64,000 nt of DNA from a bacterium (GTDB taxonomy: Bacteria > Patescibacteriota > Minisyncoccia > Phycocordibacterales > Phycocordibacteraceae): assembly GCA_021811365.1 (NCBI GenBank), contig JAJZPB010000001.1, forward strand, positions 32,312 to 96,311, written 5' to 3'. The notes under the pieces are model-generated. The model was not told the DNA's origin, did not search any database, and saw nothing but the letters and a program-made list of their open reading frames with translations. The position numbers and the translations under genes were made by a program. Shown here one piece after another: positions 35,448 through 52,219 of this stretch. The first letter of the stretch is position 1, and every line of letters starts with the position of its first letter.

Positions 35448-36724
35448 AGCAACTACTTAAAGCAATCGGAGCAAGCATTCTCGCGGTTTGCGCGCGGCTT
35501 GTCATTCGGCGCTATAAGCCGAAGATTGTCATGGTTACCGGCTCCGTCGGTAAAACCTCCACAAAGGACGCGGTGGCTGCGGTCCTCGCGGCGCGTTTTT
35601 TCGTTCGCAAGAGCGAGAAAAGCTTCAACAGCGAGTTTGGCGTGCCGTTCACGATTCTGGGCGTGGGGAACCCATGGGGCAAGCCGACCGCCTGGCTTGC
35701 AGTGCTTAAGAGCGCTTTTACGCTTCTCGTCCTCCCTAACCACTACCCCGCACTGCTCGTGCTTGAAGTGGGTGCAGACAGGCCCGGCGATCTTGAACGA
35801 ATACTACGTATCGCGACGCCGGACGCAGTTGTTTTAACGCGCTTGCCGGAAATCCCAGTCCATGTCGAGGCTTACGCATCGCCTGACGCGGTACGCGAAG
35901 AGGAGTCGCTGCCAGCCTATGCACTGTCGTCGGGAGGACCTCTTATCGTGAACGCCGACGACGAGTACGCGCTCGAGGTTGCGGCGCGCACGAGCGCGCG
36001 CGTTATCACCTACGGCGTGAGCGACGAGTCGCGGGTGCGCGTAAGCGCTACAGACTTTTACATAGAAGAAGGTGTAGTCGTTGGAATGCAGACGAAAGTG
36101 CAGGTGGGCGAAGAGGATGCAATCGTGACAGTGCGTGGATCGGTAGGGAAGGCGCAGGTGTTACCAGCCGCGGCGGCAATCGCTATAGCGACCACGTTTG
36201 ACATAGCTCTTCCCGAAGCGCTCGAGGCGCTGGCTGCGTATGAGCCGCCGCCCGGTCGCGGTCGTTTGTTCCGTGGGAAACGCGGCAGCGTCATTGTCGA
36301 TGACTCGTATAACGCGTCGCCGGCAGCCGTTGAGGAGGCGCTCACTACCCTGAAAGCCTTTCCAGGCGCGCGTCGCCGCATTGCTGTTCTTGGCGACATG
36401 CTTGAGCTCGGCCGCTATTCCGTGATGGAGCACGAGCGTCTCGGCGCGCTCGCCGCGGAGAGCTGTGATGTAGTGGTTAGTGTCGGCATTCGCGCGCGCG
36501 GCCTTGCCGCGGCAGCAATCAAGGCGGGCGCCCAGACCGAAACATTTGACGAGTCGAATCGCGCAGGGCTCGCGCTCGCCGATATTGTGCAGGAGGGCGA
36601 TGTCGTGTTGGTCAAGGGTTCGCAAGGGGTGCGTATGGAACGGGTCGTCGAACAGCTGCTCGCGGACTCCGCTGACCGCGCGCGCCTCGTGCGCCAGGAA
36701 AAAGAGTGGCGTAAGCGTAGGTAG
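35444..36724 (+). CDS. murF: UDP-N-acetylmuramoyl-tripeptide--D-alanyl-D-alanine ligase
   Basis: The Mur-ligase P-loop VMVTGSVGKTSTKD and a Mur ligase C-terminal domain (DDSYNASP). ATGA overlap with ftsI. Confidence 0.85.
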   Translation: MKQLLKAIGASILAVCARLVIRRYKPKIVMVTGSVGKTSTKDAVAAVLAARFFVRKSEKSFNSEFGVPFTILGVGNPWGKPTAWLAVLKSAFTLLVLPNHYPALLVLEVGADRPGDLERILRIATPDAVVLTRLPEIPVHVEAYASPDAVREEESLPAYALSSGGPLIVNADDEYALEVAARTSARVITYGVSDESRVRVSATDFYIEEGVVVGMQTKVQVGEEDAIVTVRGSVGKAQVLPAAAAIAIATTFDIALPEALEALAAYEPPPGRGRLFRGKRGSVIVDDSYNASPAAVEEALTTLKAFPGARRRIAVLGDMLELGRYSVMEHERLGALAAESCDVVVSVGIRARGLAAAAIKAGAQTETFDESNRAGLALADIVQEGDVVLVKGSQGVRMERVVEQLLADSADRARLVRQEKEWRKRR

Positions 36725-36743: not shown

Positions 36744-38519
36744 CTAGAGGCCGCGAACCCCGAGCTTTCGATATTCTTCGGACGAAAGGTCGAGGAAATT
36801 CTGGATTTGACTTTCAGAGTAGGATTGGTCCAGGTCTGATAGAGTCACTAGCTGAAAAGATGAAAGCGGGACAGGAGCTTTTTGCAAGAAAAATGAAAGA
36901 TGACCACGCACTACGCTTTCGTTTCCGGCCAGGTAAAAAAGGGCAGGGTACGACCGGCTCAGATACAGCCAAAACGGGTTGAAGGGCAGACTTTGTTTCT
37001 GCATCATCGCGTTAATGCCCGCAATAATTGAGTTCATGGCAATGGCCGTCTGGATTTGTTGATCGAAAAGAGCAGACTGGTCGTGATATAGCGCGATTCG
37101 CCGTTCAAGTGCGTACACGGTGTCCGGAGATGTCTGTCTCGCAAGAGACTCTTCTCCTGTTGCTGATAGGAGATTAGAAATGGTGCCTACATATTGCGAA
37201 ATAGCGTCTTCGGATATAAAAGGCGCGTTCGTGATTTCACTTTCCTCTGTGGCAGCGCGCTTTATCAGCGGACTCCTTTTTTGGAAAGCTTTGCCTAAAA
37301 AAAGCGGCCGTTGAGCAATGCTGTCGGCAAGTCTATAGAGCGATGCGACGCGTGCAGATTCTATGCCCGAGTCGGGGCATTCATAGAAGTTCGACACCCT
37401 TTGCCCAAGGAAAGATAGTCCGTGAGCTTGAAGGTCGGTATAAAAAGCGCTCGACGTTTTCTTGCGCAGGTCGTAAAAATACATGTTGTTAATAGATTCG
37501 AATTGAAAATCTGGCACAGGTGAATGTGCATCTCGGATCGTCCATAGGTACATATAAAAAGGACCTGTGGTAGGCACGCAATCACTTTTTGTAAGTGCCA
37601 CCACGCCGAGGCCCATAAATTGTTCTCCAAGGACGGTGGCGTTTGTTTTTTCCATCGATGTGAGTACCGATTCCACGTGTGTGACTGGTGGTGGTAAGGC
37701 GGCAAGAGTTGTCGAAACTCCTGAAAGGGAACTGGTTCGCGGGAGCAGGCTTTGCAGGGGGGTGCATGCAGTGTTGTTTCCCTGTAGACAGCTAAATCGT
37801 GCAAGCGCTTTTTGTTGGTCGTCTTCCGCACTAGCAGCCAGAGCTGATAAGCGCGCACCGAAAACGCCGCTCGTGGTGTACCCATTAGGGAACGTATATT
37901 CGTTGTTGGCGATGCTTTTACTGCCAAGCCCGTCGAGAGCGGAGGCGGTTTCGTTAAGTGCTGATTGATAGTGCGTCAGCGCAGTTTGCAGCGACGTATT
38001 GTAGAGGAGCGCGCCACTGTAGCTTGGGTGCGTGAGTAGTGCGATACGGTTTTTCTCAAGCTGTGGAAGCGTCTCGAGGAAGGCGATAGGATAAAAACTA
38101 TTCGCGAGTACCGTACGAATGCTGCTGGGGTAGGCCGCCGAGAGCGAATCGACGGATTGCCTGAGGGCCGCTATTGCGAGTGTCAACTTCGCAGGGTCCG
38201 TCCCCCCGAGAGCCATGATGGGATCAAGCCGATTTGCAATTGTAAAGTATGCAATCCGAAAAACCTTAGAAACGGTATTTGGGTTGGTGACTACTTTTCC
38301 GCCTGTTGCCACGACGCCATGACTGACTGAGTAGGTGGTGCTCCCGATGGTAATATCGGGCACAATAAACTGAGAAAATTGCCGACTAAACGCCGAGGAA
38401 TTTGAAGCGAATACCCCCTCTGCTTGAGCGTAATAAACAAGCAGACCTATTCCTATAAAGAGAAAAGCAGAAAGTAAGAAGAATAAAGTACCCCGATGTC
38501 TGTGGATAAGGGATTGCAT
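36744..38519 (-). CDS. Large N-anchored extracellular hypothetical protein (591 aa; start at internal ATG)
   Basis: Start chosen at MQSLIHRHRGTLFFLLSAFLFIGIGLLVYYAQA, a signal-anchor. Ser/Thr/Ala-rich, with no enzymatic motifs. Convergent with murF across the palindrome ttgctgggcccagcaa. Confidence 0.55.
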   Translation of the reverse strand: MQSLIHRHRGTLFFLLSAFLFIGIGLLVYYAQAEGVFASNSSAFSRQFSQFIVPDITIGSTTYSVSHGVVATGGKVVTNPNTVSKVFRIAYFTIANRLDPIMALGGTDPAKLTLAIAALRQSVDSLSAAYPSSIRTVLANSFYPIAFLETLPQLEKNRIALLTHPSYSGALLYNTSLQTALTHYQSALNETASALDGLGSKSIANNEYTFPNGYTTSGVFGARLSALAASAEDDQQKALARFSCLQGNNTACTPLQSLLPRTSSLSGVSTTLAALPPPVTHVESVLTSMEKTNATVLGEQFMGLGVVALTKSDCVPTTGPFYMYLWTIRDAHSPVPDFQFESINNMYFYDLRKKTSSAFYTDLQAHGLSFLGQRVSNFYECPDSGIESARVASLYRLADSIAQRPLFLGKAFQKRSPLIKRAATEESEITNAPFISEDAISQYVGTISNLLSATGEESLARQTSPDTVYALERRIALYHDQSALFDQQIQTAIAMNSIIAGINAMMQKQSLPFNPFWLYLSRSYPALFYLAGNESVVRGHLSFFLQKAPVPLSSFQLVTLSDLDQSYSESQIQNFLDLSSEEYRKLGVRGL

Positions 38520-38832
38520 GGGTAACCGCAATGAGAGTACAGTATTCCTATCAGATGTGTAAGCAGTATACTGCATTAAATTACTCCCACCATGCATCCA
38601 CGTAAATTTCCTTGGGTTCAAAAGTCGGCACTGTTCATGGCTGTGATAGCTTTTGGATCGGCGGTAGCAAGTGTCTTCGTGGTCGTTCATGAAAAGCCAG
38701 GAAGCGAGGTTGCGGTGGCCCAGGCGGCACACGCATGCGTCGCACCAATCGGGAATACGTCTCCAACGAACGTACGCACGGCAAATCAAAGAAAACAGCT
38801 CTTCGTGAGCTGCGCAGGGTTTTTAAACTGAA

Positions 38833-39951
38833 TCAAATAGCAGGGTCTCTTTTTAGTACGACCCTCTTCTTCCCATTCGAGGCAATAGAAGCTACCTTTC
38901 TCGCAACGAGCGGTACAAATATGCCGGCCTCTATGAGCTGACTCAGCGTACGAGTCTTCGTTACAAAAAGCGAATCAGCAAGATACTTTCCAATCTCCGT
39001 CTCAGTCGACGCGGCACTGCGGGGTACAAAATCAAAAACAGCTTTTCCAGATAGTTTTCCGTCGTGGAGAATTTCTCCAACGCGGAGCTGATACTCAACG
39101 AGTGTACCCGCGAGAGGCTCAAGAACTCGCTCGAGCTCTTCTCGCAAGAAAAGAGCTCCGAGAATCGGTACTATGTCAAAATCTTTGCGTCCGTAGAGTA
39201 GTAACGTAGGCTGTTTCCCACAAGGGCAAGGGTTTGTATCGAGCTTACCTAGGTCGCCAGTGCGGTAGTTTTCGAGTTCAGTCGTCGTAGCAATGATTTC
39301 TCCTACACCTTCCTCGTCTGGTTCTGCGATTGCTAAAACCGTCTCCGAGTCCTCGAGAAGGTGGTAGCGTTCCTCATTTTCTGTCTCCAAGCACTGAGCA
39401 GTGGGATAAATAACCTCCGAAAGGGTGTACCCGCCTTGTATGGTCGCGTCAGGAAATAATGCTCGAAGGTGTTTTTTTTGCGTCGAAGTGCAGAGCTCGG
39501 CCATGGTCTGTATCAGACGTATATTTTTTAGTACGGAGGAACTAGTTTTAAAAAGCGTCTCGCCGAAACGCAGCGCTCGAGACGGTGTGGCGCGTATTGT
39601 GTGCGGTTCATACTCGTTCATAATAAAAGGCAGATTCTTCTCTTCAAGGTCGCGTTCGTCAAGTGTTAGGTACATTTCTATTGAGCTTGATGTAAGCGCT
39701 CGGCGAATAACATGTAGTGCGGCGAGGTTATTTAGCGGTAAACGAACATGCCTACCGAGATTTGCAATCCATATGTCATGTGTTTCCCCGCCTGGTTTGT
39801 CAGGCCGAAACAACGCGACGAGCGTTGGAAGGCCGGTAGTCGTTCCGCTCGAGACGGCCATGTGGATGTGCTGAGTAGACGGATCTCCGGGCGTATATCG
39901 CTCGATGCCGTAAATGCGTTTCGCCAGGTCCTTTTTTGTTAAGTAGTGCAT
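38833..39951 (-). CDS. PaaK/F390-synthetase-like adenylate-forming enzyme (ANL superfamily), last gene of the ycaO operon
   Basis: The AMP-binding P-loop SSGTTTGLP, the YRTGDLGKLD motif, and a CPCG Zn-knuckle typical of PaaK/CapK-like ligases. Confidence 0.75.
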   Translation of the reverse strand: MHYLTKKDLAKRIYGIERYTPGDPSTQHIHMAVSSGTTTGLPTLVALFRPDKPGGETHDIWIANLGRHVRLPLNNLAALHVIRRALTSSSIEMYLTLDERDLEEKNLPFIMNEYEPHTIRATPSRALRFGETLFKTSSSVLKNIRLIQTMAELCTSTQKKHLRALFPDATIQGGYTLSEVIYPTAQCLETENEERYHLLEDSETVLAIAEPDEEGVGEIIATTTELENYRTGDLGKLDTNPCPCGKQPTLLLYGRKDFDIVPILGALFLREELERVLEPLAGTLVEYQLRVGEILHDGKLSGKAVFDFVPRSAASTETEIGKYLADSLFVTKTRTLSQLIEAGIFVPLVARKVASIASNGKKRVVLKRDPAI

Positions 39952-39958
39952 ATTCTTC

Positions 39959-40762
39959 CTATGAAGTAGACGCGAGTTCGAATGCGCGAGTCCCTTTGCA
40001 GGAGCAGTCCTTTTCGAGAAATCGCACCGTGAGTCCTGGACGGTAGTTAATAATTGGCGTCGGCAGCATGTGCGTGCGCGTGACCGTCAAGTCAGTGGTG
40101 GTATCAACAACGTAGTTTTCCGATTCGTGGAAAACGATCTTTTGCCCGGCAAGTGCTACGGGGCAGGCGTACGCGATTCCTCCCGTTTCCGGCAGTCCGA
40201 GCACGAGGTGTATCTGCGTGGAAGGGAAAGTGCGTATAAGCAAAGGAAGGTTAAAAGTGATATCGACAACAGTTACGTAAGCAGTTTTGGTTGTGTCGTA
40301 GTGACGCGCCAAGGCCGTAGCCGTTTTCTCTATAGTTGCCGAGTCTGCGACGATTGAGTCCACTTCGTACCGCTGTGCAAGCATACCGGTAATGTCCTCG
40401 TCTTTGTCGGCGATGATTGGCAAGATATTTCTGGTTGTACACCACAGTGCCTTCTCAAGACATTCGTGGATAGAAGCAAAGGCTACGAGAGGTCGATTGC
40501 CAAGATCCCCATACTCTTCTCGTCCAATATCCGATAGGTGTCGACCAATTAAAAAAGGCCTCTCGTTGTAGTAAGCGACTTTCGCTAGAAGGTTGTCTGT
40601 ACGATAGAGCCGACGAGCGAAGGGAGTATTTGCGTATTGTTCTCGTTTTAGCGGTGGGAGCTCATTACGGGGAGTCCGAGAGTTCTCAGTATTCCAGACA
40701 GAACGATAAAAGTCCGACGCAGTCTCTTCAAAGACAAGCCTTTCAATCGGTGTAGGACTCAT
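39959..40762 (-). CDS. Degenerate PaaK-like protein lacking the AMP P-loop
   Basis: Its C-terminal INYRPGLTVRF...DCSCKGT parallels NYRTGDL...CPCG of the neighbouring ligases, but there is no SSGTTG motif. 7-nt gap to the next gene. Confidence 0.35.
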   Translation of the reverse strand: MSPTPIERLVFEETASDFYRSVWNTENSRTPRNELPPLKREQYANTPFARRLYRTDNLLAKVAYYNERPFLIGRHLSDIGREEYGDLGNRPLVAFASIHECLEKALWCTTRNILPIIADKDEDITGMLAQRYEVDSIVADSATIEKTATALARHYDTTKTAYVTVVDITFNLPLLIRTFPSTQIHLVLGLPETGGIAYACPVALAGQKIVFHESENYVVDTTTDLTVTRTHMLPTPIINYRPGLTVRFLEKDCSCKGTRAFELASTS

Positions 40763-40773
40763 AAAGCAGCCTT

Positions 40774-41607
40774 CTAACTAAGTTTTGCCGGAGCGTGCAA
40801 CCACTGAATTATCGAGTGCCGATTTTTTCGATTCGTCTGGAACGTATGCATGGAACGAAGGCTGGTCTGAAAAGCGAAAAGAGTGTTGTTTATGGGTGGG
40901 ACGACTTTCAGTCGTGTGGCGCGGTCCGCAGAATATACGCCAGTCTCGCCACCATCGCCCTCGTGCCACCCGTCATTCAGTAGATAGAAAAGTATCGCAA
41001 TAGCCTGGAATGGTGCGGCTCCTTGCTTTGAGCTGCGTGTCAGGTCAGTATAGCTTTGTGAAATGGAGGTGAGTGGCTTATACCCGATAACGCCATTCGA
41101 CAAGGGGACAGAGATCGCCGGGGACCGTTCAATATGGTCGTGGTGTACCGACCCGGTCTTATCGCCGGCTGGATGGTAATGAAATACCACCTTCGTTTCA
41201 GTAGTCGTACATTGATTGAATAACTTTGAGAAGAAAAGATTCCACTCAATGCTGTAAAAAATGCTGAGCGGATGCCTCGGATCTACGGTCGGTTGTGGCG
41301 AGTGCGTATAGCCGTCATACGCTATATCAAACGCATGAAAGCCGTCGAGAGTGTAGTCTCGCTTGTCGTGTAAGCCTCCTCGCATTGCTTCAGTGAAAAC
41401 AGAACAAAGGTTTTCATATGCCGTGGGCTTAAAAAAGTCAGGGATGACAACGTGCGGATATGGATCAGACATGATGCACACGTCGTATTTCCGCACGTTC
41501 GTAACCTCATCCAAATCAACGTTTTCGCGCGAGTGCAGGATTGACTTATGTACCTTGATTTGTGCCTTTCGGAAGCGGTCGTATAAGGTCATAGACGCAG
41601 TATACAA
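40774..41607 (-). CDS. Putative 2-oxoglutarate/Fe(II)-dependent oxygenase
   Basis: An HxD triad element in VHHDH, a distal His (SMHTF) ~90 aa later, and RHS (RxS) 10 aa after it. The pattern fits the 2OG-Fe(II) oxygenase facial triad plus 2OG-binding Arg. Confidence 0.5.
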   Translation of the reverse strand: MYTASMTLYDRFRKAQIKVHKSILHSRENVDLDEVTNVRKYDVCIMSDPYPHVVIPDFFKPTAYENLCSVFTEAMRGGLHDKRDYTLDGFHAFDIAYDGYTHSPQPTVDPRHPLSIFYSIEWNLFFSKLFNQCTTTETKVVFHYHPAGDKTGSVHHDHIERSPAISVPLSNGVIGYKPLTSISQSYTDLTRSSKQGAAPFQAIAILFYLLNDGWHEGDGGETGVYSADRATRLKVVPPINNTLFAFQTSLRSMHTFQTNRKNRHSIIQWLHAPAKLS

Positions 41608-41629
41608 TGTCTATTCAGACTGTAAGTAT

Positions 41630-42343
41630 CTAACAAAATTTGATAGAGTACACCGCTTGTTCGTTATTCGGGTCGATTGCGAGCATGTCTGAGACGATAC
41701 TGTCTTTGAAACCGGCCATAGGCCGTGCATTTATATTGTGCGCCGCCGCTAGTAGTAGCATGTTTTGCGCCACGTGACCTGCCTCAAGTAGGGCAAGGTT
41801 GTACGCAAAGTCGCCATATTTAGTAGCACTACGTTCCCACACAGCGGTGAAGACGATAGCAGCAGCAGCGGGACTAACCGCCTCGTCTTCAGGATAGAAA
41901 AATAGATCATTCACGCCGGCATGCACTGGCAGTTCCCAAAGACGCTCGAGGGCGTGAGTTTTCGGGTGGTAATGAAAGACGCTTGGAGAAAAGCTGTCAA
42001 CCTGACCGAACAGGTACGTTTCGATAGGATAGAGCGCTCCGCCGGAAGGGTAGGGACGCGTTTTGTCAGCGCGCATGCGTGCCGCCTGGAAAAGAAAACT
42101 CACGTCATTAAGTGAAAAAGATGTAAGGGGCGCATGTTTATTTTCCGAAGAGCGCAGAGAAAGTGCTTCGACAAGGCTCGCTGTGTTACTCACCGCACTT
42201 TCTGGAAGCGTAATCCGTTCCATGCGCGGATACTCTTTATGTTGCCAACGTATTGCGTCCTGCACAAGCGTCGCTGCTCCTCGACCAACTAGTAGTGCGT
42301 GGCGCAGGTCTGTATGTAGGCGAGAAATAAGGTGGCGTCTCAT
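41630..42343 (-). CDS. SagB-type (McbC-like) FMN-dependent dehydrogenase, nitroreductase fold
   Basis: The hallmark RPYPSGGALYPIETY motif of SagB/McbC azoline dehydrogenases. Start chosen 4 nt after the ycaO stop; the track ORF extends to 42406. Confidence 0.8.
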   Translation of the reverse strand: MRRHLISRLHTDLRHALLVGRGAATLVQDAIRWQHKEYPRMERITLPESAVSNTASLVEALSLRSSENKHAPLTSFSLNDVSFLFQAARMRADKTRPYPSGGALYPIETYLFGQVDSFSPSVFHYHPKTHALERLWELPVHAGVNDLFFYPEDEAVSPAAAAIVFTAVWERSATKYGDFAYNLALLEAGHVAQNMLLLAAAHNINARPMAGFKDSIVSDMLAIDPNNEQAVYSIKFC

Positions 42344-42347
42344 AGAG

Positions 42348-43835
42348 CTACGCAAATGGATGGGGCTCTTCACTGGAGTGCGCCTCCTTTTCAACAAGAT
42401 AGCCAAATTGCTTAGGTATTTCGTTCACGCGAAGGCCATCTACGGGACGATTTTTTTCCTTCAAGTAAAGCGGCTGTAGTTCAGGTATGATGACTCGTTC
42501 TAGATGCCATGGAGTTGGATTGCCTTCGGACTTCGTCAATGAAACAGAAACGCACTCATAGCCTTTCTCTCGACACCACGAGACAATGCGCGCAAGATGT
42601 TCTTCGTCAGTATCGGATTCCCAGGATTCGGCCGTAAGGTTTACGGTCGGCCCGGCTGTCAAAAAAGCAAGACCTTTAGCCCTATTGTGTTTTGTCCAGT
42701 AGCGGAGACGGTCAAAGTGGCCAATGTCGGCAATTTGCTCTTGAACTTCCTTGGGTGTTTCGTTTTCCATTGCGCGGATATCAGGTCGGATGCGTAGCGC
42801 TTCAAGTAGAGCGCCTTCTGCTGCTTGCGCAGGATCGCGATGCGCTTTTAGGCCGAGTGACATATTTGGCGTCATTCCGGATTCGTCTTCCAAGACTACA
42901 GCTAGCGCGTATGTCGGTGCGTCGGTCAGCATGCGAATCACCTGTGGTATCAGCCGGTAGCGCACGCAAAGCTTCATGAGTCGCGAAAGAGAAGCACTGC
43001 GGAGAGCAAGTTGTTCAACGTTTATACGAGGCAAGATGAGTCGATTGAGCCAGAGAATCATGTACGCATCGCGTTCGATAGCCTCAAGAGCTCCTTGGAG
43101 TATGGCCGCTTCCTTCGTCTTTCCACCCGCGCAGCCATTTGTATTTTGTTCCCGCAAAAGCGGCTCATTGAGCGAAGTTAGTACGCCTGGGTTCCCACTC
43201 ACGAGTTGCGCGGGAACCCATAACGGGCGTTTTGAGATGAGTGAGTCACCCCGAATCCACAGGAATTTTTGTTCCGGAGAGGACTTTTGCGGGAGTCCTA
43301 CAAGACGTTCGAGATCTAGCGCGGCAACCCTCTTGCGCCGCATACTCTCAGCCGTCGCTTTTTTTTGAGCGGCAAAGTAGTCGACCCGACTTGCCCACAC
43401 ATGCCGTTCCACTGCCTCGGCTAGCGCTGTAGTGAGTGCTACTCGCTCGTTGTCGAAAGAAATTCCCGAGGCTATAAGGTTCTCACGAACGGCGTAATCA
43501 CGAACACAAGAAGCCGACCAGATGTAGAGCGGCGGTTCATCTGGTAAGGACTCAGTGAGCTGTATTGTTTGGATGACGCCCGCAGCATGCAACGTCTCCG
43601 CAACCGAAAAAAGATCCAAAAGTTCCGGTTTTTGGAAGGGGATAACAGCTCTGTCATACACAACTCGAGCATGTAGACGACGCTCGAGAAAACGAATGAA
43701 TGAGGAAACAGCCTCCTTTTGGATGCTTGATACACCAGACCTACTCCATATTTCCTCGAATGGTATAGCGTCGAACATTTCATTTTTTATGCTAGCAGTG
43801 TTTAACGACGAGTCAATGTACAAAAAAGTACACAA
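42348..43835 (-). CDS. ycaO: YcaO-domain protein (ATP-dependent cyclodehydratase family)
   Basis: The three YcaO signatures occur in order: ALAEAVERHVW, NTNGCAGG (SNGxAAG-like) and ALEAIERDAYMILW (ATP/Mg-binding ExxERD). Confidence 0.85.
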   Translation of the reverse strand: MCTFLYIDSSLNTASIKNEMFDAIPFEEIWSRSGVSSIQKEAVSSFIRFLERRLHARVVYDRAVIPFQKPELLDLFSVAETLHAAGVIQTIQLTESLPDEPPLYIWSASCVRDYAVRENLIASGISFDNERVALTTALAEAVERHVWASRVDYFAAQKKATAESMRRKRVAALDLERLVGLPQKSSPEQKFLWIRGDSLISKRPLWVPAQLVSGNPGVLTSLNEPLLREQNTNGCAGGKTKEAAILQGALEAIERDAYMILWLNRLILPRINVEQLALRSASLSRLMKLCVRYRLIPQVIRMLTDAPTYALAVVLEDESGMTPNMSLGLKAHRDPAQAAEGALLEALRIRPDIRAMENETPKEVQEQIADIGHFDRLRYWTKHNRAKGLAFLTAGPTVNLTAESWESDTDEEHLARIVSWCREKGYECVSVSLTKSEGNPTPWHLERVIIPELQPLYLKEKNRPVDGLRVNEIPKQFGYLVEKEAHSSEEPHPFA

Positions 43836-43931
43836 TAGCGGTTATGAAGGTTATCCACAAAACTAACAGACACAGCGCGTCGCCAGACAGGCAGTCTGCT
43901 CTATACTAAGAATTAGTTATAATATTATTTT

Positions 43932-44222
43932 ATGGCAACGATTTTAAAAAAGAATATGCGAGCTGGGCATTCATTTCTCAAGGGGACAGGTTCGCTACTG
44001 CTAGCCGTAGTTGGATTTTTCATGATTTTTTTTGGACCCGGAACGGTGTCGACGGGGAAGTCCAACACGTTCTTGAGCATGATGGACTTCAACGTAGCTC
44101 ATGCGGATACGAATACCTGCGGCCAAACATGCTATACCACCTACGTTAAAGGTGGTGGCTCCTCTTCAAGCTATTGCACGTCGACTTGCACCGTTGGTGG
44201 TTCATCGTGCGCCTGTAGTTAA
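43932..44222 (+). CDS. Candidate RiPP precursor peptide with a Cys/Ser/Thr/Gly-rich C-terminal core
   Basis: 96-aa ORF divergent from ycaO across an AT-rich 96-bp promoter region (tatact, tataat). The C-terminus is TNTCGQTCYTTYVKGGGSSSSYCTSTCTVGGSSCACS. The N-terminus carries a hydrophobic signal/anchor-like stretch. Confidence 0.6.
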   Translation: MATILKKNMRAGHSFLKGTGSLLLAVVGFFMIFFGPGTVSTGKSNTFLSMMDFNVAHADTNTCGQTCYTTYVKGGGSSSSYCTSTCTVGGSSCACS

Positions 44223-44255
44223 CGGATAAAGCGTTGTTTATGTTACATCAACACA

Positions 44256-45347
44256 ATGAGCGGCGTATATAATGGCAAGCGTATAATTTATGCTTCCGCA
44301 ATTATCGTTGCGGTGGCGTTGGTGATTGCGGCTGGAATTTTATTGTACGTACGTTACGAGCATCGTATACGGTTCAATCATCTTATTTTGCAGGCCGAGT
44401 CTTCTTATCATGAATATAACTATGATACTGCGATTACGGCTGCGTCAGATGCTATTTCATTTGCTCCAACAAGGGCTGACGCCGACCTAGCCAAATACTA
44501 TGTTGCCGCCTCGCTTTATAATAGAGGGAACAGTAAAGACACCGTCACTAGCATAACGCTTCTTAAGTCAATTATCGCTGACCCAGCAGCAAGCGCACAG
44601 CTCAAGAGTTCTGCCTATATCAGGCTCGGTTTGCTGTACTCCCCATCAGGAGTTAATAGTTCGCTCAACAAGCTGGTATTCAGCGGACCTCCGTACAGCG
44701 ATTATCTGGCGAGCGCCAAGGGGAACATGGGTAAAGCGACGCTATCGCTGTATGAGAAGGCAAATGAATTGTATCCATCGGCAGCGGCAAATTACGCCAT
44801 TGCAGCATCGCAAGCAATGGGGATTTACACGCAAGGGATAAACGTCAAGGACCCAACCCAGCTGCAGGTTGCCCAAGCGGTCCAAAGGACGGTTGCTAAC
44901 GGCGACGCGCTATTGGCGGCTGGATCGTCGACCCTCGCGCAACTGCCGCAACTTTACATGTTACGTTCTTTTGCACTCAGCACGGCTTCGTATTATGTAC
45001 CCGAAATATCCCCGCAAATTGTTGATAGTTCCTACGAACATGCGTTATCGCTCATGAACGCAGCCAGTACGAGTATATCCTACCTAAAGCTGACTACCGT
45101 CATGCTTAACTTGACTTATGCAGCCTCCCTAGTCGAAAGAGAACCCGGAGCCCAAAATACAAAAATTAGCAGCCTGCTTTCAGACTTTTTAAATGAGACG
45201 AACGCATTTCCGACTCTTCTCCCGCAAAATGTACTCGCGATTCGCGCTTATAAGCCAGGAACCCCTATTCTCGACGCGATTCCAAAACTTGCAAAACTCT
45301 ATCCACCCTTTGCTGCGTACTTAGTTCAAATAGGCTGGAATAAATAA
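44256..45347 (+). CDS. N-anchored membrane protein with helical repeat (TPR-like) ectodomain
   Basis: A TM helix IIYASAIIVAVALVIAAGILLYV, then a 330-aa Ala/Leu/Tyr-rich helical domain. Immediately downstream of the precursor gene. Confidence 0.5.
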   Translation: MSGVYNGKRIIYASAIIVAVALVIAAGILLYVRYEHRIRFNHLILQAESSYHEYNYDTAITAASDAISFAPTRADADLAKYYVAASLYNRGNSKDTVTSITLLKSIIADPAASAQLKSSAYIRLGLLYSPSGVNSSLNKLVFSGPPYSDYLASAKGNMGKATLSLYEKANELYPSAAANYAIAASQAMGIYTQGINVKDPTQLQVAQAVQRTVANGDALLAAGSSTLAQLPQLYMLRSFALSTASYYVPEISPQIVDSSYEHALSLMNAASTSISYLKLTTVMLNLTYAASLVEREPGAQNTKISSLLSDFLNETNAFPTLLPQNVLAIRAYKPGTPILDAIPKLAKLYPPFAAYLVQIGWNK

Positions 45348-45370
45348 AACGCGAGCAGTTTGTTCTTATG

Positions 45371-46816
45371 CTACAGGAGAGGAACAAACATTCTCATTTT
45401 TCCCTCAGATCCCGCTCCCCATAGTGCTGGGTATTCAAATATGATGGATAGTTCGGTACCGATGTGTTTATAAAGTTCATTAGAAAAGCGACTCTCAAAA
45501 GATTGTTTATCACCGTGCCGTAACTTAACTCGAATTACCAACTGGCCAAGCGTCGGTTGCATGATTTGATAAAACTCGATTTCGTCAAAAAAAAGTGGAA
45601 GCAGAAAGCGATTTATCTGGCGAAAAGGCGCTATTTTTCCGCTCGGGAAGCGAATGAAGTCCATCTGTTTTCCTGAGAAGGCAAGAAGAGGCAGCGTGCG
45701 GCCGCAAGGACACTTTTCAGGTACGATTCGACCACGATCACCGATGTGATACCTGAGAAGCGGAAGGGCGCGATTCTCAAGGGAGGTTAGTGTGATCAGT
45801 CCCTCTTCGCCGTCGGGAAGGCGTCTACCTTGTTCATCAGTTATTTCTAGAAACAGGCGCTCGGCGTGAACGTGGTAATGATGCCGCAGCTTTGGACACT
45901 CGATAGCTATCTGCCCGACCTCGGTACTTCCGTAGGTTGCTACCACAGGACAACCGAGGACTTTTTCCGCATACTCACGCGAATCGTCGTCAAGACGCTG
46001 GCCTCCGGCTACGACTAGTTGAAATGGTAGTTTTTGACGCGACTCAGCGAGCTTTTTTGCAAATAGGAGAAGATTTGTTGGGTAAATGTACAATACTCGA
46101 TACCGTCCCGTCGTTATCTGGTCAAGTAGATTTTGAAATGCCTGATCAGCATTAGTTTCAACAGGACTCCAGTTACAGGCCACAGACGGCTGTGCCGTGG
46201 TTGGTCCGGTAAAGCTAGCTATGAATGGACGTCTCCCATCTCTTTTTGGTGAAATGCCGTGCCATACGAGGATGCGATGAAAATATGAGGCGGACTCGAC
46301 GAAGCTTGTATTTCTGTCGCCGCCCCACTCGAACGGTGCGCCGGTCGTACCAGAGGTGCGAAACAACACAAGACGTTCCCGGTCTTTAAATGCCGGCGCA
46401 AGAAGTTCCGCTCGAGAAGTATTCGTAAACGACTGTTTGGAAACTGGGGGTAAGCGCTCCAAAACAGACAGAGCCGTCAGTGACTCCCTTTGTATTCCTG
46501 CGCCCTCCAGCCGGTCTCGCCACCAGGGAATGGTTTCAGCAATTCGTAGTATCTTTTTGAGCCGAAGCAGTTGCAGCTCGTGCATGAGAGACGGGTCGGC
46601 GTATTCGGTTTCGGGCAAAAGGTTTCGATAAGCATTGGTGACGAATTCGTGCCGATACCCATACAGGGAGCGGTAGGGTTGCAAAAATTCCGCTACTGCC
46701 CGCACCACCATGCGTTTTTTTTCGTTTCGGGTGGGGTTAAAAATTTTACGTTTCATCTGCGACTTCGCGTAAGTGTAATACCAGAAACGTGTCGTGTACA
46801 ATGTAAGCACCTGCAC
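45371..46816 (-). CDS. PaaK/F390-synthetase-like adenylate-forming enzyme (second copy)
   Basis: The P-loop RTSGTTGAPFE, YGSTE, YHIGDRGRI and CPCGR motifs. The true start may be an internal Met (M21 or M36). Confidence 0.75.
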   Translation of the reverse strand: MQVLTLYTTRFWYYTYAKSQMKRKIFNPTRNEKKRMVVRAVAEFLQPYRSLYGYRHEFVTNAYRNLLPETEYADPSLMHELQLLRLKKILRIAETIPWWRDRLEGAGIQRESLTALSVLERLPPVSKQSFTNTSRAELLAPAFKDRERLVLFRTSGTTGAPFEWGGDRNTSFVESASYFHRILVWHGISPKRDGRRPFIASFTGPTTAQPSVACNWSPVETNADQAFQNLLDQITTGRYRVLYIYPTNLLLFAKKLAESRQKLPFQLVVAGGQRLDDDSREYAEKVLGCPVVATYGSTEVGQIAIECPKLRHHYHVHAERLFLEITDEQGRRLPDGEEGLITLTSLENRALPLLRYHIGDRGRIVPEKCPCGRTLPLLAFSGKQMDFIRFPSGKIAPFRQINRFLLPLFFDEIEFYQIMQPTLGQLVIRVKLRHGDKQSFESRFSNELYKHIGTELSIIFEYPALWGAGSEGKMRMFVPLL

Positions 46817-46818
46817 CT

Positions 46819-47613
46819 ATGAGACGCGAATGCAAAGAGCCAAAGTTTTCATATGTCATCTGTACTACTCCGCGTTCAGGTAGCACCCTCCTTACCACGA
46901 CGCTTGGGCAAACCGGGGTGGCAGGGAAACCTGATGAATCAATCACGCTTTCTTTTCGAGAGGAGGTGCGCCGCGCCAAACAGCTTGGTACGCAAGACTT
47001 TCGTGAGTATATCGAGAGAGCAATTACTGCCTCCACAACGGAAAATGGCGTTTTCGGAACCAAACTCCACGCGTTTCAGACGATGGCATTTCTTACGAGG
47101 ATTTCCGAGTTTCGGAGTGAGCCCATTGTTTCTCTACAGGCCGCTTTTAATAGGCAATTTCCGAACACGCGTTATATTTTTCTGACCCGTGGCGAAAAGG
47201 TTAAACAAGCGATATCGTATTACCGAGCGCTCATGACCGACGAGTGGCACCGCTTGTCGAAAACGGGAGAAATCGAACGTGTCGCTGGTCCAATTTCGTT
47301 TGACCAGTACGGTATAAAAAAAAGTCTTGCGTTTATCGAACGCTCTGACGCGTATTGGGAGAGCTACTTTAAAGCGCATAAGCTTTCGCCACTGCGATTG
47401 ACTTACGAAGAGCTGGTTGGGTCGTATGAGAGCTCGATACGGCGCGTTCTTGACTTCCTCGGACTTCCTGCCGATGTCTCTGTACCGGGGCAGGTTGTAC
47501 AAAAAATGGGTGACGAACGCGCTATCGCCTGGGAAAAGGAGTTTTTGTCGCTCGAAAAAGTCGCCCCTGCAACTGTGTCAATCCTTAGCGACATATTGCT
47601 TGCGCCGTACTAG
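46819..47613 (+). CDS. Stf0-like sulfotransferase (PAPS-dependent)
   Basis: An N-terminal 5'-PSB loop YVICTTPRSGSTLL and a later RGEKVKQAISYYRA (3'-PB-like) region. Confidence 0.7.
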   Translation: MRRECKEPKFSYVICTTPRSGSTLLTTTLGQTGVAGKPDESITLSFREEVRRAKQLGTQDFREYIERAITASTTENGVFGTKLHAFQTMAFLTRISEFRSEPIVSLQAAFNRQFPNTRYIFLTRGEKVKQAISYYRALMTDEWHRLSKTGEIERVAGPISFDQYGIKKSLAFIERSDAYWESYFKAHKLSPLRLTYEELVGSYESSIRRVLDFLGLPADVSVPGQVVQKMGDERAIAWEKEFLSLEKVAPATVSILSDILLAPY

Positions 47614-47689
47614 TGGCGGTTACACAGAAAGTCCTCCTTATCAGTTAACGGCTACCTCTGAAGACTAGGTGCTATAGTTAAAGCGCATT

Positions 47690-48529
47690 TTGACCATGTG
47701 GACAGAACGTCGTAACCATAAATATATAGCGAGCGCTGTCTTATTTGTTGTCGCGGTAATGGTTGCCTGGGTGGCTACAGTCGTTCCGTCAACAAGCATA
47801 TATCGCACGCTGGTACGGACGGTGTGGAGTCATGGCTATCCTGGAATAGCTTACGAACTTAATCAGACCGACCCGACGCTCGCCATGGCCGTCGGTAACT
47901 ACTATTTCGGCGGCGGGCAGTACAATCTTACAAGGGCGATAGACTCTTTTCAGCTTGCTGTTCGGTTGGATCCAACCATACTTTGGGGACACTACCAGCT
48001 TGCGCGCATCTATTTCGTGCAGTCACACTTTGATCGGGCGCTGAGCGAGATTAACGCGGAACTTGTAGCGAATCCCGCAAACCTCCGCTCCCTGTACGTT
48101 AGGGGGCTTATCTACATGTATCGTGGACGCACGGGTGACTTGAGTCTTGCCGCAACTGATTTCGAGCATTTTATTCCTTGGGCGCCTACTGAGTGGGCTG
48201 GCTACAATGACTTAGCATTCGTCCTTGCGGAGGAAGGGGAGTATGCGGCATCGGAAAACATATTGCAGGAAGCTTTTATCCACGTTCCAAATGCTAATAA
48301 GAATCCATGGATTTGGAACGGTATTGGTCTCGACCAGTTAAATGAGCATCACTATGCTGCCGCAAAGAGCTCTTTCAAACAGGCGGCGATGTTCGCAAAG
48401 ACGCTTACGCTCACCGACTGGCAAAACGCCTACTCCGCTGACAATCCCGCCGCTGACGCCTCCAGCATCGCGACGTTCCAGAAAGCGATTGCGGAAAATT
48501 TGCAGATAGCAACCGCAAAAATGAATTGA
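47690..48529 (+). CDS. N-anchored TPR-repeat protein
   Basis: A TM helix, then degenerate 34-aa TPR-like repeats (LAVRLDPTILWGHYQLARIYFVQSHFDRALSEINAEL...). Confidence 0.55.
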   Translation: MTMWTERRNHKYIASAVLFVVAVMVAWVATVVPSTSIYRTLVRTVWSHGYPGIAYELNQTDPTLAMAVGNYYFGGGQYNLTRAIDSFQLAVRLDPTILWGHYQLARIYFVQSHFDRALSEINAELVANPANLRSLYVRGLIYMYRGRTGDLSLAATDFEHFIPWAPTEWAGYNDLAFVLAEEGEYAASENILQEAFIHVPNANKNPWIWNGIGLDQLNEHHYAAAKSSFKQAAMFAKTLTLTDWQNAYSADNPAADASSIATFQKAIAENLQIATAKMN

Positions 48530-48643
48530 TTTTTGCATAGTGGCGAGCGGGATGGCCCCCCCACAGTCGTCCTAAAAGTTCTCCACACAGGTGACTAGTA
48601 CAAAAGAACACCATCAATCCTTTACAGTATACTGAGCACACGT

Positions 48644-50704
48644 ATGACTCGCGCACACCGTAAGCTGCTTCGCAAAGCTGCGCATTCTCTGAGGAAGAAA
48701 AAACGAGCTATCCATACAGCTTCTCGCATTGTTGCTGGCAGGTTTAAAAAATCTAGTCAACTGCTTGTTGCGGGAGGAGTGCTTGCGATTTTCTTTGGAG
48801 TGGCCATAGTGAGCTACTCCGGAACGTCTTCACTCGGTAAGGTAGCTGTTCCCGCACCAGCAGCGCTTACTCCCAGCTCCGTTGGGTTGGGAAAGGGGGT
48901 CCCCGCATGTGCTAGCGCTCAAGGTCCAACATGCACATCAAATGGGACTGCGTCCGTGACGATTAATTGGAATTTTCTCAGCGATTCAGGTCAATGCCAG
49001 TTTGTAATAATGGCTCCTGACGCTGGCATTCCTTCACCGTATCTTGATGTACCTTATTCAAGTGGGGCTTGTTATGCGGGGTGGGGCGGGTGTGTTTACC
49101 AGGAGCTTCCATGTGTCGGGAGCCACACGTTTACTGGCTTGCAACGAAACACGAGCTATGCGTACTGGTTCCACATTCATCATGCGTGGAATTGGAATAC
49201 TGACCCCAGTACGGACCCTTCAAATACCTACGGAGAAAAGAATTCTCTTACGGTGCCCAATTGTACTGCTTCTAACTACGGTCAGTCCTGCACCTCAACA
49301 GCAAACTCTTGCGGTCAAACAAACTCGGGTACATATGACGTCAATGGCAACTGCACCGCAAGCACACCACCGAATCCTGGGAATTTAGGTCAGTCCTGCG
49401 CCTCCTCAGCTAACGCGTGTGGCCAGACGAGCGGAGGCACCTACCAATGCAACGGATCTTGTTCTGCAAGCGCACCACCTAACTCAAGTTGTCCTCAACC
49501 TGCAGATGTCAGCAGTATTTCAGCTTCCTGCAATTCGACAGGTAATCTAGTGGTTTTTTCTTGGCCCGCAGTTTCCGGAGCGAATATATACCAGATCCAG
49601 TACTATTCAGCGAATGGTTCCTGCTCATCTGGATGGGCACTCTATACAGACGGAACAACCTGCTACAAAGATATTGCAGGTACTTCTGCAGCGGCTTCTG
49701 TTACGCCGGGGCAAAGTTCATATGCCTGGGTGAATGCCGGTAACACGAACACTGGCCAGTGGGCGAACTGGAGTACTCAGCCGAAGACAAGCTTCACCTG
49801 CCAATCCCCAACCCCCACTGTCACCTGGTTAGGGAGCCAGGGCTGCGTGCTTCCCAACAATAATTCCGGTTGCAACCTTACGGCTCACTGGACTGCCTCG
49901 AATCTGCCACCGGGCAACGGGCTGGTAGATTTACAGATAACGGGAGTTCCCCCGGTTTCTTACAATAAAACCTTCACAGGCTTACCGCCGACCGACCCTC
50001 AGTACCTTGTGACGCAAGCAGGTAAATACATCTTTACCCTGTTTACGGACAATAATGGGACTCCGGGGACGCAAATCGGGACAACGGCGTCGATGGCAGT
50101 GTGTCCGTTTGGTTATACGCTCGATACAACGAATGAAGTTTGTGTCCCGCCTCCTCTGCCAACCGTCGCGTTCTATCCGAGTCCAAGCACAATCGACAGC
50201 GGACAGTCAACGACTCTTTACTGGAGCTCAACGAACGCCTCGTCTTGCTCTGAAGAGCCGGGCACGAGCGGTTTCAGTACGGGCGCGGGTTCTCCTGTCA
50301 AAGGCAGTACATCCACCGGCACACTCACCACCACTACGAACTATGGCATTACTTGCACGGGTCCCGGTGGCTCAACAATTGGCCACGCTACCGTCACCGT
50401 GCTGCAGCCCACCGTTAGCATCTCTGCCGCTCCGACGCGCGTAGTATCCGGCGGCTCAACGGTTGTCTCCTGGGACGCCACCAACGTCGACACCTGCTCG
50501 ATCAGCAGAAACGGTCAGCCCTGGCCTACCGGTGGAAGTACGTTTACGGCAAACAGTAGTCGTCAGGTGACTGGAAACAAGACAGATACTATTACCTCCG
50601 ACACAACCTACATGATTACCTGCACGAATAATGCGCATACAGCAACTTCCGCCGTCTCCGCGACTCAGGTTGTAAGCGTTGTGCCGGGCTACGCTAACTT
50701 CTAG
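48644..50704 (+). CDS. Giant N-anchored Cys-rich extracellular protein (686 aa) with beta-rich repeat modules
   Basis: A highly basic N-tail, one TM helix, then >25 Cys in repeated Cxx(Q/N)(T)xxGTY/CT(S/A)S(T/A)PPN modules and Ig/FN3-like Ser/Thr-rich segments. Confidence 0.6.
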   Translation: MTRAHRKLLRKAAHSLRKKKRAIHTASRIVAGRFKKSSQLLVAGGVLAIFFGVAIVSYSGTSSLGKVAVPAPAALTPSSVGLGKGVPACASAQGPTCTSNGTASVTINWNFLSDSGQCQFVIMAPDAGIPSPYLDVPYSSGACYAGWGGCVYQELPCVGSHTFTGLQRNTSYAYWFHIHHAWNWNTDPSTDPSNTYGEKNSLTVPNCTASNYGQSCTSTANSCGQTNSGTYDVNGNCTASTPPNPGNLGQSCASSANACGQTSGGTYQCNGSCSASAPPNSSCPQPADVSSISASCNSTGNLVVFSWPAVSGANIYQIQYYSANGSCSSGWALYTDGTTCYKDIAGTSAAASVTPGQSSYAWVNAGNTNTGQWANWSTQPKTSFTCQSPTPTVTWLGSQGCVLPNNNSGCNLTAHWTASNLPPGNGLVDLQITGVPPVSYNKTFTGLPPTDPQYLVTQAGKYIFTLFTDNNGTPGTQIGTTASMAVCPFGYTLDTTNEVCVPPPLPTVAFYPSPSTIDSGQSTTLYWSSTNASSCSEEPGTSGFSTGAGSPVKGSTSTGTLTTTTNYGITCTGPGGSTIGHATVTVLQPTVSISAAPTRVVSGGSTVVSWDATNVDTCSISRNGQPWPTGGSTFTANSSRQVTGNKTDTITSDTTYMITCTNNAHTATSAVSATQVVSVVPGYANF

Positions 50705-50780: not shown

Positions 50781-50852
50781 GGCCCTATCGTCTAACGGCT
50801 AGGACAGCGCCCTCTCACGGCGCAAATCGGGGTTCGATCCCCCGTGGGGTCA
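50781..50852 (+). tRNA. tRNA-Glu (anticodon CTC)
   Basis: The cloverleaf parallels E. coli tRNA-Glu: acceptor ggcccta/tggggtc, D-arm gtc-taacggcta-ggac, anticodon stem gcgcc/ggcgc with loop ctCTCac, and T-arm cgggg-ttcgatc-ccccg. No encoded CCA. Confidence 0.75.
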
Positions 50853-50932
50853 CAGGTAGAGGTTTGTCATCAGTAAATTTGCCGTATAGCATTATAAGAA
50901 AGGGCTCCGCACGTTGCGGAGCCCGTGCGCTA

Positions 50933-51763: not shown

Positions 51764-52219
51764 CTACGCGAGCAAGGAGTCGACTACCGCTTTTACATCG
51801 GCGCCGTCTGCTTTGCCCGACACGTCTTTCATAAGTGCCCCGATAAGTTTTCCGGCGTCAGCTTTTTGCGTGACGCCGAGTTCGGCGATTTTCGTTTCCG
51901 CTATACGGGTGATCTCCTCGCGAGTCATTTGTGCAGGCAGATACGAACCGACGATAGACAACTCCTCCTTCTCCGGATCGGCGAGGTCGGTGCGACCTGC
52001 CTTTTCGAATTGTTCTATGGAGTCCCTGCGCTGATTTGCTGCGCGTTTGAGAATGGCAATGGCCTCGTCGTCCGTCAGCAGCTGGTCGGGCTTGCGTTTT
52101 TTTGCGACCAGCTCGTTAGTCATTGCGGTTACCAACGAGCGCAGCGTGCGTAAGCGCACCTCGTCGTGAGCGCGCAGCGCCTCAGGAATGCCTTTCTTAA
52201 GCGTTTCGTGGATGGTCAT
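51764..52219 (-). CDS. GatB/YqeY domain-containing protein
   Basis: 151 aa. ...LRTLRSLVTAMTNELVAKKRKPDQLLTDDEAIAILKRAANQRRDSIEQFEKAGRTDLADPEKEEL matches the YqeY family pattern. Confidence 0.7.
   Translation of the reverse strand: MTIHETLKKGIPEALRAHDEVRLRTLRSLVTAMTNELVAKKRKPDQLLTDDEAIAILKRAANQRRDSIEQFEKAGRTDLADPEKEELSIVGSYLPAQMTREEITRIAETKIAELGVTQKADAGKLIGALMKDVSGKADGADVKAVVDSLLA

Follow-up and report, generated by a model that had tools for sequence, protein, structure and literature searches.

Gene Content of the Locus

The locus described here lies in a stretch of 64,000 nucleotides (the window) from a bacterium of the Patescibacteriota (GenBank assembly GCA_021811365.1, contig JAJZPB010000001.1, positions 32,312 to 96,311 of the forward strand). 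It contains three genes for proteins related to the phenylacetate-CoA ligase PaaK, here called lig372, pl267 and PaaK461, which flank genes for a YcaO cyclodehydratase, a SagB-type dehydrogenase and a 2-oxoglutarate (2OG)-Fe(II) oxygenase and are accompanied by a gene for a Stf0-family sulfotransferase (Table 1). All three had been read as PaaK-type proteins in an earlier note on this DNA, and profile, hhalign and structure matches bear this out. They probably represent two independent PaaK-type systems that abut: System A, a four-gene cassette that includes pl267 and lig372, and System B, which consists of PaaK461.

Family membership was assessed by Pfam and NCBIfam scans, by comparison of family profiles with the Protein Data Bank (PDB), by hhalign, and by AlphaFold2 (AF2) models searched with Foldseek. 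Loci recovered from relatives are numbered L001 to L020, and homologous proteins carry P numbers. Three family alignments are referred to as A1 (pl267), A2 (lig372, 11 members) and A3 (PaaK461, 5 members). The pl267 family was sized by a full hidden Markov model search, its representatives being clusters at 50% identity, and the status of the CapK_C domain (PF27533) rests on precomputed domain annotation. The open reading frames (ORFs) of lig372 (372 amino acids, aa), pl267 (267 aa), PaaK461 (481 aa in its longest form) and the sulfotransferase (264 aa) were verified at the positions and on the strands given in Table 1. Pairwise BLASTP among the three ligase-like proteins is weak (4e-7, 0.029 and one non-significant comparison), so that profiles and structures were required; none of the three matches LuxE (PF04443).

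Table 1. Genes of the variable block and its flanks, with positions in the window
Feature	Position	Strand	Description and support
murF	35444-36724		Flank of the block
big591	36744-38519	-	Membrane-anchored, probably extracytoplasmic, four invariant Cys; homologues, with whose starts ATG at 38519 agrees
small79	38592-38831	+	N-terminal membrane helix, two Cys; homologues in cassette loci; convergent with lig372
lig372	38833-39951	-	PaaK-type ligase, predicted catalytic subunit, begins at (Y)LTKxDL; 4r1l profile match, A2 motifs, Foldseek
pl267	39959-40762	-	PaaK N-domain-like pseudoenzyme; hhalign, AF2/Foldseek, P0280 bridge, family alignment
2OG-Fe(II) oxygenase	40774-41607	-	Pfam PF13640 1.3e-7; L009 orthologue 46% identical
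SagB-type FMN dehydrogenase	41630-42373 (ORF to 42406)	-	TIGR03605 1.4e-27, above cut-off
YcaO (SagD-type) cyclodehydratase	42348-43835	-	Pfam YcaO 6e-42, TIGR03604 1e-52
Candidate precursor peptide	43932-44222	+	96 aa; basic N-terminus, hydrophobic helix, NVAHA/D (slash, putative cleavage point), Cys/Ser/Thr/Tyr-rich core ending CACS
p363	44256-45347	+	Membrane-anchored all-alpha TPR-like protein; homologues in L009 (44%) and L012 (29%), same arrangement
PaaK461	45371-46756 (longest ORF to 46816)	-	Full-length PaaK/CapK-clade adenylate-forming enzyme; family matches, orthologue alignment
Stf0-family sulfotransferase	46819-47613	+	PF09037 7e-38, 130.9 bits vs. cut-off 22; divergent from PaaK461
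TPR protein	47690-48529	+	Recurrent block neighbor
686-aa Cys-rich surface protein	48644-50704	+	Recurrent block neighbor
tRNA-Glu	50781-50853		Flank of the block
yqeY	51764-52219		Flank of the block

An Enzyme and a Pseudoenzyme of the PaaK Family

The lig372 protein has no Pfam match, only weak NCBIfam matches (1.3e-8), and a score far under the PaaK equivalog cut-off (33.9 vs. 700). Its 11-member profile nevertheless matches PaaK BT_0428 (4r1l) with E 9e-19 over both the N- and the C-domain, residues 24-332 aligning with 84-408. As the alignment begins at residue 84 of 4r1l, lig372 is a two-domain enzyme without the first ~80 residues of PaaK. The elements SSGTTxG, YRTGD, CPCG, GRKD and K362 (lig372 numbering) are invariant or nearly so in A2, and the two domains with intact adenylation motifs place the protein in the ANL superfamily, within PaaK. 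The AF2 model is of low confidence (pLDDT 66.5, pTM 0.41) and was used for the identity of the top matches only; in Foldseek these all belong to the PaaK family (ClxA, BT_0428, PaaK1; E about 1e-11). Since it retains every adenylation motif, lig372 would be the catalytic subunit, adenylating a carboxylate with ATP.

The pl267 protein alone matches no Pfam or NCBIfam family, and its profile returns only noise from PDB sequences. Compared profile to profile in hhalign, it matches the lig372 family (E 8.6e-6) and the PaaK461 family (E 2.6e-5, residues 30-259 on 97-355), the latter alignment pairing LPPLKREQY with LPPVSKQSF and AYYNER with TSGTTG. The top 14 Foldseek matches of the AF2 model (pLDDT 72.7) are all of the PaaK family (E 1e-8 to 6e-7, TM about 0.56), and its structural neighbors include AjiA1, ClxA, BT_0428 and NatL2. 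A single-chain relative of 427 aa, P0280, bridges the two proteins, matching both lig372 (7e-23) and pl267 (6e-9). The large N-domain fold and the collinear profile alignment thus assign pl267 to the PaaK fold. As a catalyst it does not qualify, having neither a P-loop nor the A7 Asp nor the C-terminal domain with its A10 Lys: the A7 position reads RY(R)PG(L/I), and the protein stops ~10 residues past CxC. The LPPLxR..Y..PF entry motif and the PETG (A5) motif are retained.

This pattern of loss extends across 119 family representatives. At E<=1e-3 the family comprises 387 representatives, of which 111 remain at E<=1e-30, and their length is nearly always 240-300 aa. A classical P-loop motif occurs in 1 of 148 newly listed members, 100 of 120 aligned members have Ile or Leu where the A7 Asp would be, and 49 columns of A1 are invariant. 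Close homologues of pl267 and of lig372 (14 each) co-occur on the same contigs, the named ones belonging to Candidatus Paceibacterota. Given this family size, constant length and intact ORFs, pl267 is a paralogous PaaK N-domain that forms a stable and widespread pseudoenzyme family, not a decayed gene. That pl267 has no function, being a pseudogene in decay or the 5' half of a ligase gene broken in two, might be suggested by the missing P-loop and C-domain and by its place directly upstream of a ligase gene that lacks the PaaK N-terminal residues, but this reading has a negligible probability and was rejected on the conservation data, the overlap of pl267 and lig372 over the N-domain also making them paralogues rather than two halves.

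Several statements of the earlier note can be refined on this basis. It had rightly ascribed ligase motifs to lig372 and PaaK461, but the P-loop of lig372 reads SSGTTTG and not SSGTTG. It had described pl267 as lacking a P-loop, which is correct, and as retaining the NYRPG...CSC end, whereas in fact most of the N-domain is kept; the alignment that it proposed to the C-terminal domain of PaaK finds no such domain, and pl267 aligns to the N-terminal domain instead. Its suggestion of a non-catalytic partner is favored over a decayed gene by the conservation of pl267 as a standalone family. The pair is not atypical for this style of genome, as had been supposed, since the family has 387 clusters and its named members are Paceibacterota.

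In the Burkholderia PaaK structures the enzymes dimerize through the N-domain. By analogy with these homodimers, pl267 may pair with lig372 through its own N-domain and serve as a scaffold or substrate-binding subunit. We know of no description of an enzyme paired with a dead paralogue in the PaaK family.

The Four-Gene Cassette

A gap of 7 nt separates the end of pl267 from lig372, and the latter is equipped with a GGAAG Shine-Dalgarno sequence of its own; across loci the junction varies from an 8-nt overlap to a 16-nt gap. A hairpin followed by a T-run stands immediately past lig372; the promoter and terminator scan of 36.5-47.8 kb in which it was found gave counts not above those of shuffled sequence. 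Two further genes complete System A. The small79 family shares a basic N-terminus, one hydrophobic helix, two conserved Cys and a C-terminal (K/R)xxF(V/I)SC(A/S)GFLx element, its hallmark in the alignment being KQLFVSCAGFL(N/D); homologues of 74-82 aa lie on the opposite strand in L001, L003, L006, L007 and L008, and beside the ligase gene in L004. Homologues of big591 (530-590 aa) are 40-71% identical in the same five opposite-strand loci and 25% identical in L020. The membrane helix of big591 is N-terminal, and no Pfam, NCBIfam or PDB relative of the protein was found.

The four genes occur together in L001/L002, L003, L006, L007, L008 and L020, with identities from 83% down to 25%. In the distant L020 (P0150) the four proteins are 33, 32, 25 and 34% identical to those of the window, and the small gene has been relocated behind the big gene. 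In three loci the cassette is found on the opposite strand, with tsf on one side and rpsB on the other (L001 9340-14673, L007 8510-13893, L008 442-5771), an insertion that splits one of the most conserved gene pairs of bacteria, and in L003 it adjoins uvrA. No match to YcaO is present in any of the six cassette loci just listed. A metagenome scan with the pl267 family gave no further contexts. Judged on these alignments and gene orders, System A is a cassette widespread in Paceibacterota, within the candidate phyla radiation (CPR), in which pl267 and lig372 are translationally coupled.

Two observations speak against so self-contained a unit: L007 has a nitroreductase gene ~8 kb from the cassette, at the end of the locus, and in the distant L004 the pl267 and lig372 homologues are 4 kb apart. 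The arrangement in L004 (3549-5611 and 9776-11179; 37 and 31% identity) amounts to a variant architecture, with the P-loop-less gene coupled to an unrelated 401-aa protein and the ligase and the small antisense gene 4 kb off, past an ABC transporter. The proteins of this divergent locus have no family matches.

The product of the pair would serve a process tied to the two envelope proteins, small79 and big591. In its most specific form this proposal makes the cassette a CPR-specific envelope acylation relay acting through the Cys of the FVSCAGFL motif of small79, and makes PaaK461 the first ANL-type tailoring enzyme of azole peptides; taken as a whole it is quite unlikely. The heterodimer would adenylate a scavenged carboxylic acid (e.g., a fatty or aryl acid), which would be loaded onto the invariant C-terminal Cys motif of small79 and then handed to big591, a logic that resembles Dlt or LuxE and is built from unrelated parts. 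In Dlt D-alanylation and with LuxE, an adenylate-forming enzyme is encoded together with small membrane and extracytoplasmic partners, and LuxE, a PaaK relative, moves an acyl group to a protein thiol. The analogy would be one of function only: neither a carrier protein nor an MBOAT nor a LuxC/D homologue occurs here, and beyond the ANL fold there is no sequence relationship.

PaaK461 and the Azole-Peptide Genes

The 481-aa ORF of PaaK461 matches in NCBIfam the DVU_1553-family ligases (2e-38) and haloarchaeal PaaK (2e-28), followed by FlxY, BagE/FevW and F390 models with lower scores, all of these far under their equivalog cut-offs. The score for Pfam AMP-binding passes the cut-off (34.7 vs. 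29.9), and the five-member profile matches BT_0428 (4r1l) with E 1e-37, residues 50-439 on 11-408. Invariant in A3 are TSGTTG, G339 and the GR of the A7 motif RY..G.(R/K)GR, C.CG and the C-terminal K453; the A7 Asp is retained in four of the five members, and YG..E.GQ and C.CGR are also conserved. A near full-length profile match combined with adenylation motifs places PaaK461 in the ANL superfamily and the PaaK family. Of the assignments listed for checking in the earlier note, PaaK thus stands at the level of the family, whereas the PaaK equivalogs (99.2 vs. 700 for NF041878, 69 vs. 646 for TIGR02155), F390 synthetase (TIGR03335, 52.9 vs. 458.7), LuxE and CapK_C do not. The precomputed annotation records PF00501 or no domain, and not CapK_C, for the five close family members P0029-P0033, and PaaK461 does not have the combination of CapK_C domain and polysaccharide-locus context that defines a CapK-type ligase.

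Gene callers differ on the length of the protein (479, 461 and 446 aa). Because the orthologues in A3 start at the equivalent of M21 in three of four cases (MKRK, MRKQ, MRRL, MKRL; P0030 starts a few residues later) and because the Joint Genome Institute (JGI) call is 461 aa, the start supported by sequence is M21 at position 46756, giving a protein of 461 aa. After this correction the divergent spacer between PaaK461 and the Stf0 gene is 62 nt (74 nt in L009). The 2-nt spacing of the earlier note, and with it a head-to-head promoter overlap, was therefore rejected as an artefact of the longest-ORF start (GTG at 46816).

Four other protein clusters are closely related to PaaK461 (81, 60, 55 and 37% identity). 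All three with usable context (60, 55 and 37%) sit 0.3-4.4 kb from YcaO and SagB genes. In L009 the ligase is arranged as in the window, with collinear flanks. In L012 it is followed by convergent p400, precursor, YcaO and SagB genes, between DUF2339 and TSP_3. In L010, from Kaiserbacteria, it lies 4.4 kb from a precursor-YcaO-SagB-PQQ group, between L25 and an aldolase, and here the YcaO is merely 23% identical to that of the window while the ligase is 55% identical. The link between the larger ligase and ycaO that the earlier note drew holds up in all three loci, and such ligases are not confined to polysaccharide genes. Scans of species-representative genomes with PaaK461 and its family returned the Kaiserbacteria contig already known and one remote match.

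Because every orthologue with context lies near YcaO and SagB in spite of differing flanks, we favor, with some reserve, the view that PaaK461 is a tailoring enzyme of a subtype of azole-peptide cluster. It might adenylate a carboxylate of the peptide or load a small acid onto it. Formation of esters and amides is within the reach of the family, as the structural neighbors NatL2, AjiA1 and ClxA and the sequence relative BagE/FevW demonstrate. Four points count against a tailoring role: in every case PaaK461 forms its own transcription unit, which converges with the precursor operon; four genes separate the ligase from YcaO in L010; the contexts, four independent ones, all belong to related CPR lineages, where common descent may have preserved the gene order; and the nearest outgroup, of up to 29% identity, is CapK-type and found in polysaccharide loci.

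This last point leads to the main alternative, that PaaK461 is a CapK-like enzyme modifying the surface or glycans together with Stf0, the TPR protein and the surface protein, its proximity to YcaO reflecting only a common variable block. The next homologues (25-29% identity over most of their length) do carry CapK_C, and two of them, P0034 and P0045, are surrounded by glycan genes, either glycosyltransferases, Wzy and exosortase or heptose genes together with Wzm/Wzt. In both the window and L009 the genes of PaaK461 and Stf0 form a divergent pair, and TPR and surface-protein genes are present in all these blocks. However, there is no glycosyltransferase or sugar-nucleotide gene in the block of the window or in L009, L010 and L012; Stf0 is missing from L010 and L012, where the ligase is kept, and is found without the ligase in L001; and CapK_C is unrecorded in all five close family members, whose orthologues with context lie beside YcaO and SagB rather than glycosyltransferases. 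We regard a CapK-like role as unlikely, though it keeps a real share of the probability.

One System or Two

The earlier note had taken all three ligase-like proteins as one accessory enzyme set around YcaO. The comparison of loci contradicts this, since the pair travels with its own partners and the cluster of L009 lacks the pair. L009 is collinear with the window through mraW, a penicillin-binding protein (PBP; 85% identity) and murF (78%), then a variable block, then yqeY, rmuC, L21 and a DEAD helicase. Its block holds genes for a 2OG oxygenase, two methyltransferases, SagB, YcaO, a precursor, p360, the ligase, Stf0, a TPR protein and a CARDB protein, 44-60% identical to their counterparts in the window, and contains no pl267/lig372 cassette. 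The cassette most similar to that of the window, in L006 (78-83% identity), has upstream of it, on the other strand, a gene for an unrelated membrane protein. On the comparative evidence the adjacency of cassette and YcaO is a local juxtaposition, found only in this genome among the loci recovered and not conserved.

Two independent systems that abut remain the interpretation we hold to be probable. Against it stands the arrangement in the window itself, where the 2OG stop codon lies 11 nt upstream of the pl267 start in the same orientation; with this gap and co-orientation, the cassette may possibly be co-transcribed with YcaO, SagB and 2OG, which would give a local functional link. Extended to a single integrated set, the argument holds that the peptide made by YcaO is the target of all three ligase-like proteins, the pair being expressed from the YcaO-SagB-2OG operon. 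Co-direction from YcaO to lig372 with gaps of 11 and 7 nt at the last two junctions would fit, as would the low GC that all the genes share (0.48-0.52 for those at 36.7-48.5 kb vs. 0.56-0.61 for PBP and murF). Such a set is nonetheless improbable: in seven other distinct loci, among them that of the closest relative L006, no YcaO adjoins the cassette; L009, which is collinear, has the YcaO cluster and lacks the cassette; and the cassette brings its own conserved partner genes.

The whole block (36744-50704, ~14-15 kb) has a GC content of 0.48-0.53, against 0.56-0.61 in the flanking housekeeping genes. The block of L009, in the same chromosomal slot, contains a serine-recombinase fragment (PF07508, L009 4603-5211). 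The block looks like a fast-changing accessory island whose chromosomal site is fixed and which received the cassette in this lineage.

Azole-Peptide Genes and Their Neighbors

With YcaO, SagB and a precursor rich in Cys, Ser and Thr, the window cluster belongs to the linear azole-containing peptides (LAP), or thiazole/oxazole-modified microcins (TOMM). The likely start of SagB is the GTG at 42373, which is preceded by AAGGAGG and overlaps the end of YcaO. The N-terminal ~110-130 residues of YcaO match no family or PDB entry, all PDB matches being confined to the YcaO domain, and substrate recognition may lie in this region. An E1-like or Ocin-ThiF-like partner (C/F protein) with a RiPP recognition element (RRE) was not found among the ten genes scanned, where a cryptic RRE is possible. 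That PaaK461 substitutes for this missing C protein of the cyclodehydratase might be argued from the lack of a C-protein or recognizable RRE gene in the block and from PaaK461 being the sole conserved cytoplasmic protein without an assigned role, but it is very improbable, as its conserved adenylation motifs point to catalysis and not to scaffolding, its gene is a separate convergent transcription unit, and the N-terminal part of YcaO could supply recognition.

The gene of p363 starts 33 nt downstream of the precursor on the same strand, so that the two are probably co-transcribed, and it is convergent with PaaK461. This tetratricopeptide repeat (TPR)-like protein has no Pfam, NCBIfam or PDB relative, giving only marginal TPR-like matches. 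Equivalent precursors lie beside YcaO in L009 (about 12500-12730), L010 (14296-14562) and L012 (7690-7941), all on the minus strand. Their leaders have in common a basic N-terminus, a hydrophobic helix, a ~20-residue spacer and a (V)AHA/D or AKA/E element (slash as in Table 1), which resembles the AXA site of signal peptidase and is followed by a hypervariable Cys/Ser/Gly(/Tyr) core. The core ends in C-A-(C)-S everywhere but in L012, where CAS is followed by NHS. Such leaders suggest Sec-type export of the candidate precursors, with removal of the leader outside the cell. Export of this kind with extracellular leader removal is reported for bufferins, and we know of no report of it for azole peptides.

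The sulfotransferase was rightly called Stf0-like in the earlier note; its PAPS-loop motif PRSGS is visible in TTPRSGST, and it stays under the cut-off of the trehalose-2-sulfotransferase equivalog (109 vs. 400). Stf0 and the 2OG oxygenase are confined to the window and L009 (9165-9926 and 16423-17268, respectively), except that Stf0 is also present in L001. From this distribution Stf0 is part of the murF-yqeY variable block and not a fixed partner of the ligase. Tyr-rich cores (CYTTYVK..SSYC in the window, AYYSYYYYSCGACS in L009) occur only where both Stf0 and 2OG are present; the cores of L010 and L012, loci without either gene, have no Tyr. This hints at sulfation or hydroxylation of peptide tyrosines, a pattern confounded by the relatedness of the two loci, and no cluster is visible in L001, which does have Stf0. 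Cys-rich units of the form ..CGQT[NS][SG]GTY..C..C..PPN.. are repeated in the 686-aa surface protein, and CGQT also appears in the precursor core (TCGQTCYTTY), probably by chance.

Comparison with Known Systems

The two-domain ANL fold of PaaK (BT_0428 4r1l; Burkholderia PaaK1 and PaaK2, 2y27 and 2y4o), or its N-domain, is present in all three proteins, and PaaK461 and lig372 retain the P-loop, YxxGD, CxCG and the C-terminal Lys. Unlike PaaK, these proteins score well under the equivalog cut-offs and have no paa catabolic genes nearby; lig372 lacks the first ~80 residues, and pl267 the ATP motifs and C-domain. The best structural neighbors of pl267 and lig372 are NatL2 (6siw), AjiA1 (6wuq) and ClxA (9s3l). 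Enzymes of this type and BagE/FevW pass the acyl-adenylate to hydroxyl or amine acceptors, besides CoA, and those of the NatL2/AjiA1/ClxA type act on aminohydroxybenzoates in small-molecule (benzoxazole and related) pathways, for which no genes are present here.

For CPR bacteria, 110 LAP clusters have been described in 93 genomes, combining YcaO with a nitroreductase and a peptidase (Sharrar et al., 2020; PMC7298704). The cluster of the window resembles these in its YcaO beside a nitroreductase-type dehydrogenase, its Cys/Ser-rich precursor and its Parcubacteria-type genome. It differs in having a ligase of the PaaK type as well as a sulfotransferase, in its 2OG oxygenase and in its signal-peptide-like leader, none of which that paper mentions. 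A full-text literature search pairing YcaO with PaaK or phenylacetate-CoA ligase returned only unrelated topics and no paper linking the two.

Biological Significance

Two elements of this locus would be new: an enzyme-pseudoenzyme PaaK pair within a widespread CPR cassette, and a rare accessory enzyme of the ANL type in azole-peptide clusters. The genomes of CPR bacteria are tiny, with few recognizable enzymes for building the envelope or for chemical interaction. Conservation of the cassette over hundreds of clusters, often in the rpsB-tsf neighborhood, points to a core function that would be undescribed, the literature not having been searched for the cassette itself. Within the ANL superfamily, pl267 and lig372 would provide a clean example of an enzyme-pseudoenzyme pair. 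For genome-mining tools, the locus indicates that adjacency alone is no ground for merging such a cassette into a peptide cluster. PaaK461, in turn, may mark a CPR azole-peptide subtype whose extra tailoring genes are those of the ligase, the sulfotransferase and the 2OG oxygenase and whose leader is signal-peptide-like. With such a subtype, azole peptides would have a broader chemistry and more ways of export than are known today.

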